DNA of 63,028 nucleotides, taken from NCBI GenBank assembly GCA_964594475.1, contig CAZQMI010000001.1, forward strand, positions 2,524 to 65,551, given 5' to 3'. Each line of letters starts with the position of its first letter. The stretch's first letter is position 1. Below the pieces are notes generated by a model. The model saw nothing but the letters and a program-made list of their open reading frames with translations. It made no database searches and was not told where the DNA came from. Of this stretch, positions 17,888 through 24,646 are shown in pieces. Source of the stretch: an uncultured Thermoplasmatales archaeon. GTDB taxonomy: Archaea > Thermoplasmatota > E2 > DHVEG-1. Position numbers and translations under genes: made by a program.

Positions 17888-20698
17888 TTATACATCAAAG
17901 CTATACGACTCTAACTCCTTCCAATTGTCTCCTACCTCAATGTCAACTTTTGCCGGGAGACACATCCAACTGGTGTCTACGCCAATATATTCTGGTGCCC
18001 ACTCCGATACTGACTCCATAGTGTTCAATACCAACGGTGCAAGCCTGTCGAGTTCAGATTTATGAACGTCAAAAATTATACTGTCATGTACGGTAAGAAT
18101 AATCTTGCTCTTCCACTTCTCCTGCTGTAATACTTCACTGAGTTTAGATAAGGACATTAGAGTACAGTCACTGGCTGCACTTTGCACTGGGTGGTTAACT
18201 GCGGCCCGTAAAGCATCTGACCTTAGATAATTGTCAGGGCTTCCAGCTTGAGGAAGGTGTCGTATTCTACCAAAAGGAGAAATGGCTATTAAGTTTTTAG
18301 TAGTAAACTGCTCCTGCTCTTCCACCCAACGTCCGATGCCCAAATACTTTTCGTAAAACTTGTTAATGTAATCACGTGCTTGATTCTTTGTAATTATGAT
18401 GCCTTCCTTTTTTAGTTGATCCATTAATCCCCGAGCACCTGTACCATAAATAATACCGAAGTTAACCCTCTTTGCAACCGATCTCTTTTCCTTATCTCCC
18501 TCTAATTCTTCAGCAGTGGCATGGAACAAAGAACAAGCTGTCTCCATGTGTATGTCGCCGTCCTCCTCGTAGACAGACATCATTATCTCATCCTGAGACA
18601 GCATAGCAGCTATACGAAGTTCTATCTGAGAATAGTCCGCCTCCATTATAAGACCATCTTCACCAAACCTGGAAACGAACATCTTCTTTATTTCACCAGC
18701 ACGTGGTATATTTTGTAGATTGGGCTCTCGAGAGGCAAGACGTCCGGTGGTAGTACCATGAAGCAGATATGAACTTCTAAGACATCCGTCACGACACATC
18801 AATGCGGGTCTCTTACCTTTCGGTTTGATGATGGACTTGATGTAGGTACCATGCAGTTTCGAGTTAGCTCTATGTTCTCTTATTAAGTCCACCAGTTCGT
18901 GCTGGCCGGAAAGTTCTTCCAGCACTTCTTCATCTGTAGACAGTTTGCCGGCATCCGTCTTCTTTACCTTAGGCAATCCCAAATATCCAAAGAACAAAGT
19001 CCTAACCTGATCCGGACTCCCTGGATTGAACTCAAACTCATCTTCCTTTTTCTTTTTCTTTCTCGGGCGATACTTCTTGCGCTTCTTTTTCTTTGCGGCC
19101 TCTTCTGCCCGCCTCTCTGCTCTAAGTTCACGCTTCTTGTCAGTAATAAACTCAACAACTTCTGGGAGTTCTGCCATCTGCTTTACTAAGCTATTCATCT
19201 TCTTTGTATAAAAGGAGTCAAGAAACTGCAAAGTTTCCTTGTCCACATGAGCACCATTATTCTGAGTATAAGTGAGACCTTTTGTTGCCTTGGTCATAAG
19301 CCCGGTAGCAATCTTGGCCAACTCTTTCCCGTATTCACTCTCTTTAATTTCATCGTTGAGAGTGTAGTACAACCTTAAACAACAATCACTGTCCCCAGCA
19401 GAATACTTATAAAGGACATCTATCGGTACATTATTGTAACTGCCTCCTTTGTTCGGATCATAAACGCTTGGTTTTTCTTTCTTGATCTGATTCAACTCTT
19501 CGTCATACCCACCCATGTCTGTATAAACATAAGCAAGCCTCTCTAAGGAGTGGGTACCTCTTGTTTCATCTAAGCAATAATGTAACAACATGGTATCAGC
19601 TACTATATTGTTAACTGAAACACCAAAATTAGCTTTGCACTGAACACAATCAAAGATAGCGTTATGTGCAATGAAACCATTGTGAGTTTCTAAGAACTTC
19701 TTGAGTTTTCTGTGGACCTTCATCTTATGTATAACTGACCACGTAGCATCTTTGTGTTCGTAAGGAACACAGAAGGCAACTCCTGGTTCCGCACTGAAAC
19801 TAAAAGTGAGGATCTGCTCCCCTTCATGATACGGAAAGCGTCCATGCGTTTCTACATCAAATGCTACTACTTCGAAATCCTTAAGATAAGAAATCATAGA
19901 GTCCAGTTTATCCATATCGTCCACTAAAGTATAATCAGTCTCTATAGTCTTATCTTCACTCTTTACTTCTCTAATGAACTCATCATGTAAGTCCATAAAG
20001 TCTTGCATATATCTGGCAAAAGTTTCTTCGTTTTCGTTGCGGCTTATATAAGAAGGATGAAAGTTTGGTATAACTGGTATGCCCTCAGCTTCAGGTATAT
20101 TACTATCTATGCGTTGACCCGCCCATGCGGTTATTCCTGACTTATCCGTTATAGAGCTAAGAGCAGTAGCGCCTAACGGTACGATAACCTTGAGGTCAGG
20201 CATGTTCTTAATCTCTTCCCGAAGAAACCTCTTACAGCATGATAGAGCCTTTACCGGTGGTTTTTTGTCCTTACCTTTAGCATCCAACCCAGGATGGCAC
20301 CGAGCCATGTTACTAAGTCTAAATTCGCCAGGTTGGAATTCAGCGTCTTCCAAGAAGCTTCTCAGCAGGTTGCCTGTAGAACCACAAAAGACCTTGTTCT
20401 TTTTATCTTCAGTTCTACCCGGAGCTTCACCGATAAATAACACCTTAGCTGTGTTTGGACCATCACTGGGTATACAATGGTTCTGTGAAGTATTGTGAAT
20501 GGGACAGTCCTCACATGTCAGAACTTTATCCTTCTTCTTCTTCACCTTCTTTTTCTTACGCTTGCTCTGTTTGGATTTCTTGGCGTTGCTCTTATTAGTC
20601 AGAGTGCGGAAAGAGGACAGTACCTTCTTTCTTGGTTTTGAAGTAGTTTCGTCTTCTTTCTTGGTACTTACTTTCTTGAATCTTTTTAATAATGTCAT
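17888..20698 (-). CDS. Family-4 uracil-DNA-glycosylase-like domain fused to a family-A DNA polymerase (3'-5' exo + pol)
   Basis: UDG4 motifs: CEDCPIH, FIGEAPGRTED..FCGSTGNLL, PNFHPSY. Exonuclease motifs: VAFDVETHG, HNAIFDC, YSAGDSD. Polymerase motifs: TTGRLASREPNLQNIPR, EADYSQIELRIAA, RSVAKRVNFGIIYG, NHPVQSAASD, LTVHDSIIFDV. There is a lysine-rich N-terminal tail and a lysine-rich exo-pol linker, AAKKKKRKKYRPRKKKKKED. Confidence 0.9.
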   Translation of the reverse strand: MTLLKRFKKVSTKKEDETTSKPRKKVLSSFRTLTNKSNAKKSKQSKRKKKKVKKKKDKVLTCEDCPIHNTSQNHCIPSDGPNTAKVLFIGEAPGRTEDKKNKVFCGSTGNLLRSFLEDAEFQPGEFRLSNMARCHPGLDAKGKDKKPPVKALSCCKRFLREEIKNMPDLKVIVPLGATALSSITDKSGITAWAGQRIDSNIPEAEGIPVIPNFHPSYISRNENEETFARYMQDFMDLHDEFIREVKSEDKTIETDYTLVDDMDKLDSMISYLKDFEVVAFDVETHGRFPYHEGEQILTFSFSAEPGVAFCVPYEHKDATWSVIHKMKVHRKLKKFLETHNGFIAHNAIFDCVQCKANFGVSVNNIVADTMLLHYCLDETRGTHSLERLAYVYTDMGGYDEELNQIKKEKPSVYDPNKGGSYNNVPIDVLYKYSAGDSDCCLRLYYTLNDEIKESEYGKELAKIATGLMTKATKGLTYTQNNGAHVDKETLQFLDSFYTKKMNSLVKQMAELPEVVEFITDKKRELRAERRAEEAAKKKKRKKYRPRKKKKKEDEFEFNPGSPDQVRTLFFGYLGLPKVKKTDAGKLSTDEEVLEELSGQHELVDLIREHRANSKLHGTYIKSIIKPKGKRPALMCRDGCLRSSYLLHGTTTGRLASREPNLQNIPRAGEIKKMFVSRFGEDGLIMEADYSQIELRIAAMLSQDEIMMSVYEEDGDIHMETACSLFHATAEELEGDKEKRSVAKRVNFGIIYGTGARGLMDQLKKEGIIITKNQARDYINKFYEKYLGIGRWVEEQEQFTTKNLIAISPFGRIRHLPQAGSPDNYLRSDALRAAVNHPVQSAASDCTLMSLSKLSEVLQQEKWKSKIILTVHDSIIFDVHKSELDRLAPLVLNTMESVSEWAPEYIGVDTSWMCLPAKVDIEVGDNWKELESYSFDV

Positions 20699-23333: not shown

Positions 23334-24646
23334 TCAGGTCTCCCACAAAAGTGCTTACATGCCCCCATAGGCCCGAGACACTCAGGTTTGTTGCATTTAG
23401 TCTCCATAAATTGTATAGGATCTATGGCTTCTTGGAAAGTGGTATCATGGTCGTCTTTGTTCTCATAGAAAGACACTCTAAATCTTCGGTGCAACCAATT
23501 AGCTATTATTCTATCTATAGCTGAGTAACTGCATCCGTCCAAAGATCCTGAGATAGTTGGGCAAGACCGTATAAAACCTTCGATAAACTTCGGGTTTTCT
23601 TTGTTGAGGTATAGATTATACACAGCTATAGCTGCAAAGAAGTGTCCCATCTCTGACTCTGCCCAATCGAAACTAAGTCTGTCATCTGTCATGTGGTAAG
23701 ACATCTTACTTTTAAGGTCTTCCATAGACGTGTAATCACGCTCCCTCAAAATAGTCTCGAACTCAAAAAAGTGGTATAGCATAACATCGAGCGTGTCAAC
23801 ATCCATCTCAGTACGATAGGGTAAAAATGATGTATGCTTAATCTGGGTTATTGTTGAATAGATGTCAAAGTTTTCCATCCCTTCGTCCAAACCGTGCTGA
23901 GAACAACCGTAAATGGCACGTGCTCTATCGAAGTGCCAATTGTAGATGTGCAAAGAACCTATATGTTGATAATAGGTGCCTACTTTCACTCCCAGCATAA
24001 TAGCCACTACCTCATGCAATACGGACCACTCCATCAAGTTGACTCCGGTCAATCCCCAAATAACATCGTTACTACGTACATAAACTGAAAGGTCTAACTT
24101 GCCATCTCTTATCATGAAGTGGAGAAGATCGTTGCAAGGAATGTCACGGGATCCACCTGTGTAGAACACTTTTGCGTCTTCATGGGCGTCCCATATATTT
24201 ATAACCGCTTGTCGGGTGCCTGGATCCTTTTTAAGGGCATCTACGACATAGGCTAACTGGTCTGTATTTTGGGGACCATATTGACGTAACCGAGGTCCGT
24301 AACCCGCACGCCAAAAATGGAACTTTTCTTCGGGTGCCTCGTCACTAAAGTCTAAGGCTCTGGGCAAGTATCTCGAGAGCCAGTCAACATCGTTACGTCC
24401 AGCCAATACCCATAGTGTCTCGGCCATCTGTGCGAAAGGATTGTTCAATCTAAAAGGGAATAGTAAGTGACGGTTGGTGGGATTGGTCAATATAACCGTC
24501 GCAGGATGGAGTTCTCTAAACGTAAGTCCTCGGGCTGTAGTATCATTACCATACTCCATAACAGCCTTGCAAGCATCATACGTTATTTCGTTGACTGAAC
24601 TTGCTTCTATTACAACGTGAGAACTATTTTCAGATTTGATTATCAC
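23330..24646 (-). CDS. Thymidylate-synthase-fold pyrimidine hydroxymethylase/methylase homolog with a ~200-aa C-terminal extension
   Basis: FAQMAETLWVLAGRND, DQLAYVVDALKKDPGTRQAVINIWD, catalytic-Cys region DIPCNDLLHFMIRDGKLDLSVYVRSNDVIWGLTGVN, GSLHIYNWHF. This is closer to T4 gp42 (RSNDVVFG, SLHVYSRHF) than to ThyA. GTG start with a GAGGGAG SD. C-terminal CNKPECLGPMGACKHFCG. Confidence 0.75.
   Translation of the reverse strand: MIIKSENSSHVVIEASSVNEITYDACKAVMEYGNDTTARGLTFRELHPATVILTNPTNRHLLFPFRLNNPFAQMAETLWVLAGRNDVDWLSRYLPRALDFSDEAPEEKFHFWRAGYGPRLRQYGPQNTDQLAYVVDALKKDPGTRQAVINIWDAHEDAKVFYTGGSRDIPCNDLLHFMIRDGKLDLSVYVRSNDVIWGLTGVNLMEWSVLHEVVAIMLGVKVGTYYQHIGSLHIYNWHFDRARAIYGCSQHGLDEGMENFDIYSTITQIKHTSFLPYRTEMDVDTLDVMLYHFFEFETILRERDYTSMEDLKSKMSYHMTDDRLSFDWAESEMGHFFAAIAVYNLYLNKENPKFIEGFIRSCPTISGSLDGCSYSAIDRIIANWLHRRFRVSFYENKDDHDTTFQEAIDPIQFMETKCNKPECLGPMGACKHFCGRPD

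Follow-up and report, generated by a model that had tools for sequence, protein, structure and literature searches.

The stretch of DNA analyzed here, referred to as the window, covers 63 kb (63,028 nucleotides) of a 69,424-bp metagenomic contig (CAZQMI010000001.1); approximately 6 kb of the contig lie outside it, and the genome may extend further. The subject of this report is a cluster of four minus-strand genes that leads into a DNA polymerase gene and probably serves the replacement of thymine in viral DNA. Pfam scans covered about 60 open reading frames (ORFs) of the window, of which 25 were additionally compared with PHROGs and 8 with NCBIfam. A first-pass annotation made from the sequence had listed the four ORFs as a chain running into the polymerase gene, and all were found at the coordinates it gave. 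The first gene (23330-24646, minus strand) encodes a thymidylate synthase (TS)-fold protein of 438 aa, most likely a dUMP hydroxymethylase, and starts with GTG, with GAGGGAG located 7 nt before it. It is followed on the same strand by genes for serine hydroxymethyltransferase (SHMT; 22071-23333, 419 to 420 aa, probable ATG start at 23330), for a YfbR-type HD phosphohydrolase (21271-22074, 267 aa), and for an orphan protein of predicted ATP-grasp fold (20595-21308, 230 to 237 aa, with a conserved core at approximately residues 8 to 205). The last gene in the chain (17888-20698, minus strand), which overlaps the 237-aa ORF, encodes a 936-aa polymerase combining uracil-DNA glycosylase (UDG), exonuclease, and PolA domains.

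The genes are closely packed. Overlapping ATGA codons had been reported for both of the first two junctions; this holds for the SHMT and HD genes, where the HD ATG overlaps the SHMT stop codon, whereas the junction between the TS-fold and SHMT genes reads TTGATG, in which the TGA stop and the ATG share one base (or TTGA is shared if TTG serves as the start). The Logan gene call places the SHMT start at the ATG. The HD gene and the 237-aa ORF overlap by 17 to 38 nt, and the 3' end of the latter overlaps the start of the polymerase gene by 104 nt in a different frame (20595-20698). The closest relative (L104, approximately positions 1361 to 1455) shows a similar overlap of approximately 95 nt, and overlaps of only 14 to 31 nt occur in more distant relatives. 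The polymerase start appears to be genuine, because the N-terminus is conserved in a relative whose polymerase is 46% identical, N-terminus included. A terminator-like hairpin (24765-24736, minus strand; 12-bp stem with 9 G-C pairs, followed by a T-run) closes the upstream gene, and the GTG of the TS-fold gene lies approximately 90 nt downstream of it. Between this hairpin and the polymerase start, no further terminator-like site was found on the minus strand; the only downstream minus-strand hairpins are two weak ones of 5 to 6 bp within the polymerase gene (19785 and 19822). The arrangement is consistent with a single transcription unit formed by the four genes and leading into the polymerase gene. 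Since at least eight adjacent gene pairs elsewhere in the window overlap by 1 to 8 nt, the coupling fits an operon, yet is not rare in itself. A repeated promoter motif was sought upstream of the operon, and the motif there proved to be unique. No match was obtained when the 6.8-kb region was compared with phage records by megablast, and in its DNA the window virus shows no relationship to any phage on deposit.

The predicted hydroxymethylase and the coupled serine hydroxymethyltransferase

The catalytic core of the TS-fold protein comprises approximately residues 1 to 250 and is followed by a C-terminal extension of approximately 190 aa ending in a CX4CX7CX3C motif (CNKPECLGPMGACKHFC), in line with the roughly 200-aa extension and terminal Cys cluster described in the first-pass annotation; the motifs RSNDVIWG, GLTGVN, and SLHIYNWHF that it had singled out are likewise present. 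Approximately residues 250 to 320 can still be aligned to relatives, whereas the last ~120 residues, including CX4CX7CX3C, are lineage specific. With a median length of 498 aa among the 120 nearest database homologues, a C-terminal extension is the usual condition in this clade. Family searches place the protein among the TS relatives in a general way: Pfam Thymidylat_synt (PF00303) matches with an E value of 7.5e-22, covering only residues 72 to 243 (profile positions 54 to 219 of 266), and the PHROG matches, 5131 and 3676, carry the label "thymidylate synthase" and have profiles 335 to 357 positions long. The cut-offs of all eight NCBIfam TS models were missed, with 31 to 73 bits against the 108 to 576 bits demanded.

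The assignment is carried by three diagnostic positions. In ThyA numbering, methylases have a hydrophobic residue at L143, where hydroxymethylases have Asp or Glu; at N177, Asn goes with uracil and Asp with cytosine; and D169 is replaced by Asn in 5-hydroxy-dCMP synthases (PMC13326640, 2026). In our alignment (A3), the window protein has Asp in place of L143 and retains both D169 and N177; the catalytic Cys (C146 of ThyA, in DIPCN), three residues after this Asp, is invariant. Asp at the L143 position is common to SPO1 gp29, MP1412_16, Marshall_147, and T4 gp42, whereas E. coli ThyA has Leu, and a one-residue insertion, GxxGxN, is common to the window protein, gp29, MP1412_16, Marshall_147, and LuckyBarnes gp41. 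The Asn of GLTGVN, already recognized earlier as occupying the uracil-selecting position, falls opposite the Asn of ThyA (N177) and of gp29; T4 gp42 and MilA have Asp in this place. The resulting Asp/Asp/Asn signature is common to SPO1 gp29 and the M6-like and ViI-like enzymes and occurs in 110 of the 120 nearest homologues.

The closest relatives point in the same direction. When 50,697 phage records, the phage comparison set of this study, were searched by tblastn, the best matches came from phages with 5-hydroxymethyluracil (hmU) or hypermodified thymine, namely, SPO1, SP8, and CP-51, the ViI-like phages Marshall and EP75, and the M6-like phage MP1412; two actinophages were also among the best matches. 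SPO1 gp29, annotated as dUMP hydroxymethylase, is 40% identical over the core and has the same signature and the same insertion. Among PDB sequences, the best match is the CMP hydroxymethylase MilA (1.4e-24), every thymidylate synthase scoring 1.5e-18 or weaker, and T4 dCMP hydroxymethylase is not within the top 60 matches. The earlier statement that the protein resembles the T4 enzyme more than ThyA was not borne out: tblastn gave 3.8e-8 for T4 gp42, a weak match, versus 1.1e-13 for E. coli ThyA, and the identities are 24% and 23%, respectively. By sequence, the protein lies closest to the SPO1-type dUMP hydroxymethylases and to MilA.

Gene 1 thus most likely encodes an SPO1-type dUMP hydroxymethylase from an already known clade, as predicted from its signature, its hmU-phage relatives, and the missed TS cut-offs, all of which speak for the hydroxymethylase, rather than plain TS, that had been proposed at the outset. 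Its predicted product is 5-hydroxymethyl-dUMP (5-hmdUMP). Because the N177 position is occupied by Asn and not Asp, dUMP rather than dCMP should serve as the substrate, so that of the two products first considered the uracil derivative stands and the cytosine derivative falls. T4-type dCMP hydroxymethylases share the chemistry and the acidic residue at L143 but select cytosine by Asp at N177, whereas the window enzyme, having Asn, should select uracil. Two identities were rejected: dCMP hydroxymethylase, because of Asn instead of Asp at N177, and 5-hydroxy-dCMP synthase, because D169 is retained. Canonical ThyA is contradicted by the missed equivalog cut-offs, the Asp in place of L143, and the lack of a match to the C-terminal closing segment.

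A separate observation concerns the Brevibacterium phage LuckyBarnes (L016, 7941-11105), whose 517-aa TS homologue combines the uracil-type Asn with the hydroxymethylase-type Asp and is directly followed by two genes annotated as HMC glucosyltransferases. Together, these features suggest that LuckyBarnes carries glycosylated hmU, not 5-hydroxymethylcytosine (hmC).

By its sequence, gene 2 is a canonical GlyA-type SHMT. The Pfam match is full length (1.6e-149, 498 bits versus a cut-off of 27), NCBIfam NF000586 is exceeded with 566 bits versus 335, the pyridoxal phosphate (PLP)-lysine motif TTTHKTLRGPRG is intact in the translation, and identities to other SHMTs range from 47 to 55%. SHMT was detected in 50 of the 50,697 phage records, many of these records being unannotated and several being short contigs; the clear cases are T4-like Aeromonas phages of the genus Biquartavirus, in which the gene does not adjoin a TS homologue. 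In IMG/VR, at least 395 stretches encode SHMT, and a TS-family gene lies within 5 kb of the SHMT gene in 4 of the best 80 loci. One of these (L053, IMG/VR 3300010883_000240, 4300-6137) has a T4-like dCMP hydroxymethylase gene whose stop codon overlaps the SHMT start; as this enzyme has Asp at both diagnostic positions, it appears to be an independent case of hydroxymethylase/SHMT coupling, for hmC. Another Asp-type hydroxymethylase is located near SHMT in L084, and canonical ThyA is located near SHMT in L087 and L060. The L053 pair means that the pairing, which the first-pass annotation had considered unusual for its dedicated, coupled SHMT, is indeed rare, yet not unique, with at least one precedent at the sequence level; no paper on such a pairing was found in the literature. 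SHMT seems to be an accessory insertion and not a core part of the cluster, because it is not present between the hydroxymethylase and HD genes of the relative L003; of the lineages with this gene order, the window alone was seen to carry it. No gene for dihydrofolate reductase (DHFR) was found in the 63-kb window by the Pfam and PHROG scans of the approximately 60 ORFs, in agreement with the earlier reading.

The HD phosphohydrolase, the polymerase, and the ATP-grasp protein

The first-pass assignment of gene 3 to the YfbR-like HD hydrolases was upheld by Pfam (PF12917, 7e-7), with a score of 29.5 bits just above the gathering cut-off of 25.9. The protein also matches phrog_7076, "dATP triphosphohydrolase" (1.3e-10), and its only match among PDB sequences is Pyrococcus 2cqz (PH0347; 2e-3), to which its segments DSHS, LHDCDE, and VDTMEL were aligned, the metal ligands H...HDxxE...D being intact. 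It thus shares the HD fold and these ligands with the DatZ/YfbR hydrolases, although sequence similarity is weak. No match at 1e-3 was obtained by tblastn in the phage records, and orthologues were found in five relatives, with 29 to 49% identity. Either a dNMPase or a dNTPase activity would fit its sequence. A related gene pair was noticed in MP1412, in which gene 17 (L017, 7043-7639, annotated as "hypothetical") encodes a YfbR-type HD protein with the segments QHS, WHDCAE..GDIP, and VDTLEL; the gene overlaps the end of the hydroxymethylase gene, a PolA gene is nearby, and the stretch VDTxEL..C.EEE.xGN is common to this protein and the window HD protein. Yuavirus, the genus to which M6 belongs, is known for DNA built from 5-hydroxymethyldeoxyuridine (5-hmdU), and with MP1412_17 being an HD protein, the hydroxymethylase/HD pair recurs in Yuavirus.

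Removal of dTMP or dTTP is expected from classical hmU phages and from phages with uracil-containing DNA. A dTMPase of phage PBS2 is cited in a passage of PMC9681768. By analogy with the dTMPase and dTTPase of PBS2 and the hmU phages, the window HD protein probably follows the same logic and removes a competing canonical nucleotide. A Z-genome (DatZ/PurZ) system was rejected, since none of the scanned ORFs gave a PurZ-like match and the hydroxymethylase is of the uracil type.

The polymerase matches the Pfam families for UDG (PF03167, 1.4e-25), 3'-5' exonuclease (2e-19), and PolA (4.5e-95). The UDG domain (approximately residues 60 to 245, after a Lys-rich N-terminal tail) contains GEAPG, HPS, and four Cys residues of the Fe-S type (CxxC...C...C) and, on the basis of these motifs, is apparently an intact family 4 enzyme. 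Fusions of UDG with PolA were counted in 39 phage records; one of these is YungSlug, a relative of SPO1 in which a gp29-like gene lies 1.7 kb upstream of the UDG-PolA gene. The order HD, ATP-grasp, UDG-PolA is kept in five further metagenomic lineages, with ATP-grasp identities of 45 to 76%. In one of them (L001), the polymerase gene is followed, as in the window, by genes for a 163-aa protein and a gp32-type single-stranded DNA-binding protein. L003 is the only relative with the hydroxymethylase gene seen upstream; its order is terminator, hydroxymethylase, HD, ATP-grasp, polymerase, and the terminator-like hairpin before the hydroxymethylase gene is comparable to that of the window.

For the 237-aa product of gene 4, no match was found in Pfam, PHROG, NCBIfam, or PDB-sequence searches, and only four close homologues were obtained among 5.8 billion proteins. 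When 1.84 billion representatives were searched with a profile, 22 proteins were found, most of them 180 to 220 aa long. The Pfam scan of 19 family members gave nothing consistent and no PPDK_N match, and the family profile returned only noise from PDB sequences. AlphaFold2 was used to predict the structure; the run based on the 19-sequence alignment reached a predicted local distance difference test (pLDDT) value of 89 and a predicted template modeling (pTM) score of 0.81, and a run with only five sequences, which had a pLDDT of 50, was discarded. Foldseek against the PDB retrieved ATP-grasp enzymes with a probability of 1.0, E values of 2.6e-6 and weaker, and template modeling (TM) scores of approximately 0.5. 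There were 116 fold matches at E values of ≤1e-3, and all 50 matches listed are ATP-grasp enzymes, among them D-Ala-D-Ala ligases (Ddl), RimK, LysX, MdnC, PurK, succinyl-CoA synthetase β, and biotin carboxylase domains. The alignments comprise approximately 200 residues of the approximately 300-residue targets, corresponding to the central and C-terminal subdomains. Matches in BFVD are viral ATP-grasp proteins, including a small PPDK-like protein of a giant virus. From the model, the protein can confidently be described as a minimal ATP-grasp domain. Of the faint PPDK_N/ATP-grasp motifs noted in the first-pass annotation, the ATP-grasp part was supported by AlphaFold2 and Foldseek, whereas the PPDK_N profile remained unmatched. 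Unlike the ATP-grasp superfamily members that share its fold (Ddl, RimK, LysX, succinyl-CoA synthetase β, and PPDK_N; E values of approximately 1e-6 to 1e-4), the window protein has only ~200 aa, lacks an N-terminal substrate domain, and belongs to no sequence profile.

The residues L23, R60, T61, N139, R147, and E186 are invariant in the family. In the VRTE strand, Arg occupies the position at which most ATP-grasp enzymes have a phosphate-binding Lys, and there is no conserved Lys; the E-x-N motif is noncanonical, and the WEIR position varies among E, Q, G, and D. The segments VRTE, GEIN, EVS, and WQIR are collinear with VRSS, GAVN, IEW, and VQAR of the PPDK_N domain of PpsA; in hhalign, comparisons of the family profile with the single sequences of E. 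coli PpsA, SucC, and DdlB were all insignificant, the probability for the PpsA N-domain being 0.2%. Conserved lysines define the Cdc123/R2K clade; membership in it was rejected, as fold TM scores were only 0.34 to 0.38 and no conserved lysines were seen.

The family gave no tblastn match in the phage records even at E = 1 and was not found in an IMG/VR scan, and a scan of GTDB genomes for its archaeal subgroup revealed no confirmed relative. Distant members of approximately 182 aa were observed in contigs of the DPANN/Woesearchaeota type (L007 to L012), next to genes for aminoacyl-tRNA synthetases, eIF-2β/eIF-1A, RIO1, and topoisomerase VI, and one DPANN-type gene overlaps the end of a MoaA-like radical S-adenosylmethionine (SAM) gene by 4 nt. 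The contigs of intermediate relatives are too short to provide gene context.

A putative thymine-replacement module and its alternatives

We consider it probable that the cluster is an SPO1-type, pre-replicative thymine-replacement module that heads the polymerase operon and makes 5-hmdUMP. The hydroxymethylase would transfer the methylene group of 5,10-methylenetetrahydrofolate (CH2-THF) to C5 of dUMP, with water instead of hydride resolving the intermediate, so that dUMP, CH2-THF, and H2O would yield 5-hmdUMP and tetrahydrofolate (THF), and SHMT would convert THF and serine into CH2-THF and glycine. If the two enzymes are coupled, as we infer, the net reaction of this closed cycle would be serine + dUMP + H2O to glycine + 5-hmdUMP; as no dihydrofolate (DHF) would be formed, no DHFR would be needed. 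On the grounds of family, synteny, and precedent, the HD phosphohydrolase would hydrolyze the competitor dTMP or dTTP, possibly also dUTP. The ATP-grasp protein would contribute an ATP-dependent step, in the likeliest case a phosphotransfer to 5-hmdUMP toward the triphosphate, PolA would incorporate 5-hmdUTP, and misincorporated plain uracil would be removed from the DNA by the UDG domain. The first-pass picture of a hydroxymethylase that acts on uracil, is fed by SHMT, and dispenses with DHFR was backed by every sequence test applied (signature, relatives, and cut-offs).

This proposal agrees with known systems in several respects. SPO1, SP8, and CP-51 have a hydroxymethylase like that of the window, the gp29 gene of SPO1 is located just upstream of the PolA gene, as is the case here, and the PolA of YungSlug carries a UDG domain, like the window polymerase; unlike in the window, no SHMT, HD, or ATP-grasp homologue was found in the SPO1 and YungSlug neighborhoods. 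The M6-like, ViI-like, ΦW-14, and SP10 systems set out from a dUMP hydroxymethylase of this type, and MP1412, like the window, has a YfbR-like HD gene, which in MP1412 directly follows the hydroxymethylase gene. The thymidine hypermodification clusters of M6-like phages, ViI-like phages, ΦW-14, and SP10 encode a DNA kinase acting on 5-hmdU (5-HMUDK) and aGPT-PPlase (PMC5889632, PMC8989533). The enzymes of these hypermodification systems, i.e., the P-loop 5-HMUDK, the helix-hairpin-helix-fold aGPT-PPlase, the PLP decarboxylase, and radical SAM enzymes, were not found among the scanned ORFs of the window, in which the ATP-grasp gene occupies a conserved slot instead.

Several points weigh against the thymine-replacement proposal. 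The sequence is metagenomic, and the module is known here from its genes alone. Classical hmU phages use dCMP deaminase, dUTPase, and a deoxynucleoside monophosphate (dNMP) kinase, and none of these was found in the 63 of 69 kb of the contig that were scanned. Similarly, no capsid, portal, or terminase gene was recognized in the 63 kb; either the structural genes are located in the remaining ~6 kb or beyond the contig, or they have diverged too far to be recognized. The base and substrate specificity of the HD protein cannot be read from its sequence, and its PHROG neighbor is a dATPase. SHMT is absent from L003, the sole relative with a visible hydroxymethylase/HD junction. The role of the ATP-grasp protein is a guess; its DPANN relatives are located in housekeeping neighborhoods without a link to nucleotide metabolism, and a host thymidylate kinase might suffice for 5-hmdUMP.

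As to this role, phosphotransfer to 5-hmdUMP is tentatively favored, because no dNMP kinase was seen and because the protein amounts to a bare nucleotide-binding ATP-grasp unit. It is doubtful, by comparison, that the protein is a novel type of enzyme, either a dikinase-like pyrophosphotransferase converting 5-hmdUMP directly toward the triphosphate or an enzyme (pyro)phosphorylating or acylating the hydroxymethyl group of hmU. If it were, the virus would have a route of thymine replacement or hypermodification independent of the P-loop 5-HMUDK and aGPT-PPlase machinery, and the DPANN relatives would point to an unrecognized nucleotide-salvage activity.

Another scenario, which we regard as unlikely, takes hmU as an intermediate that is derivatized after replication, either by the ATP-grasp enzyme through (pyro)phosphorylation or ester formation, on a route that would differ from the P-loop 5-HMUDK and aGPT-PPlase system, or by glycosyltransferases adding sugars. 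In M6-like phages, post-replicative hypermodification genes do cluster with the hydroxymethylase and PolA genes, and pyrophosphorylated hmU has been documented as an intermediate in ΦW-14 and SP10 (PMC5889632). The fold matches of the 237-aa protein include ester-forming ligases, such as MdnC, and the small PPDK-like giant-virus protein, and its motifs are collinear with those of the dikinase-type PPDK_N domain (VRTE/VRSS, GEIN/GAVN, EVS/IEW, and WQIR/VQAR); however, hhalign to PpsA gave a probability of <1%, and no DNA-binding domain is apparent in the protein. Two GT4 genes are present at 60 to 62 kb of the window, and LuckyBarnes has two glycosyltransferase genes directly after its Asn-type hydroxymethylase gene, but those of the window are 36 kb away from the cluster, adjoin tail-fibre-like genes, and share no similarity with T4 β-gt or with the LuckyBarnes enzymes. 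Together with the lack of 5-HMUDK, aGPT-PPlase, PLP decarboxylase, and radical SAM genes in the window, this leaves the first part of the original suggestion, that hmU is made, in agreement with the hydroxymethylase signature, whereas nothing positive was found for its second part, a further modification.

Less probable still is a division of labor in which only the hydroxymethylase and SHMT serve base replacement and the ATP-grasp protein, perhaps with the HD protein, modifies a protein of the replisome or the host in the manner of RimK, TTL, or Cdc123-like enzymes. RimK, LysX, and Cdc123-like proteins are among the ATP-grasp fold matches, the distant family members adjoin translation-factor and aminoacyl-tRNA synthetase genes in DPANN archaea, and the ATP-grasp gene overlaps the stretch encoding the Lys-rich N-terminus of the polymerase. 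Against this stand the strict synteny of the ATP-grasp gene between the HD and polymerase genes in six lineages and the lack of the pre-ATP-grasp domain that positions acceptors in peptide ligases, with fold alignments covering only ~200 of ~300 target residues. Finally, an ordinary thymidylate supply, with a divergent TS making dTMP, SHMT feeding it, and host DHFR recycling DHF, would fit the Pfam and PHROG label "thymidylate synthase" and the ThyA-SHMT neighbors in the viral contigs L087 and L060 but is highly improbable in view of the Asp replacing the water-excluding L143, the C-terminal TS segment unmatched by the Pfam model, scores of 31 to 73 bits far below the equivalog cut-offs of 108 to 576, and SPO1 gp29, a dUMP hydroxymethylase, as the closest characterized relative.

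Base replacement is a major means by which phages escape restriction and other DNA-targeting defenses and a source of enzymes for biotechnology. The hydroxymethylase and the overall hmU logic are already known, an hmU-type phage is an expected variation of a well-known theme, and the coupled SHMT is a rare accessory, although the two-enzyme cycle of hydroxymethylase and SHMT would free hmU synthesis from folate reduction by the host. The new element is the ATP-grasp family, which has no characterized member and is conserved between the HD and polymerase genes. The value of the finding therefore hinges on what this protein does; if it acts on 5-hmdUMP or on hmU-containing DNA, it would represent a new enzyme class in the chemistry of nucleotide or DNA modification.

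Other genes of the window

Directly upstream of the operon, a gene on the minus strand (24810-25910) encodes a highly acidic 366-aa protein that contains a (GEAE)n repeat, has a tail rich in Lys and Asp, and gave no family match. The window further encodes a set of replication and recombination proteins, comprising ribonucleotide reductase (RNR), Rad50/Mre11-like proteins, flap endonuclease (FEN), a RuvC-like resolvase, a RecA-like protein, gp32, NAD-dependent ligase, primase, DnaB, and a superfamily 2 (SF2) helicase, as well as HU, a MoxR-VWA pair, and tail-fibre-like proteins. Tail-fibre-like fragments at 52 to 60 kb are the sole structural genes recognized. Two GT4 glycosyltransferase genes (60013-61188 and 61124-62239, minus strand) adjoin the tail-fibre-like genes and may serve either DNA or a surface glycan; a link to T4 β-gt or to the LuckyBarnes glycosyltransferases was rejected, as no similarity was found. 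Among the remaining minus-strand features are an ORF with a weak, subthreshold match to an intein splicing domain (914-1972), the RNR large subunit with a TSCPD domain (5096-7597), the MoxR AAA and VWA pair (31003-33510), and a fusion of a ROS/MucR domain with a TnsA-like endonuclease (57850-59154).

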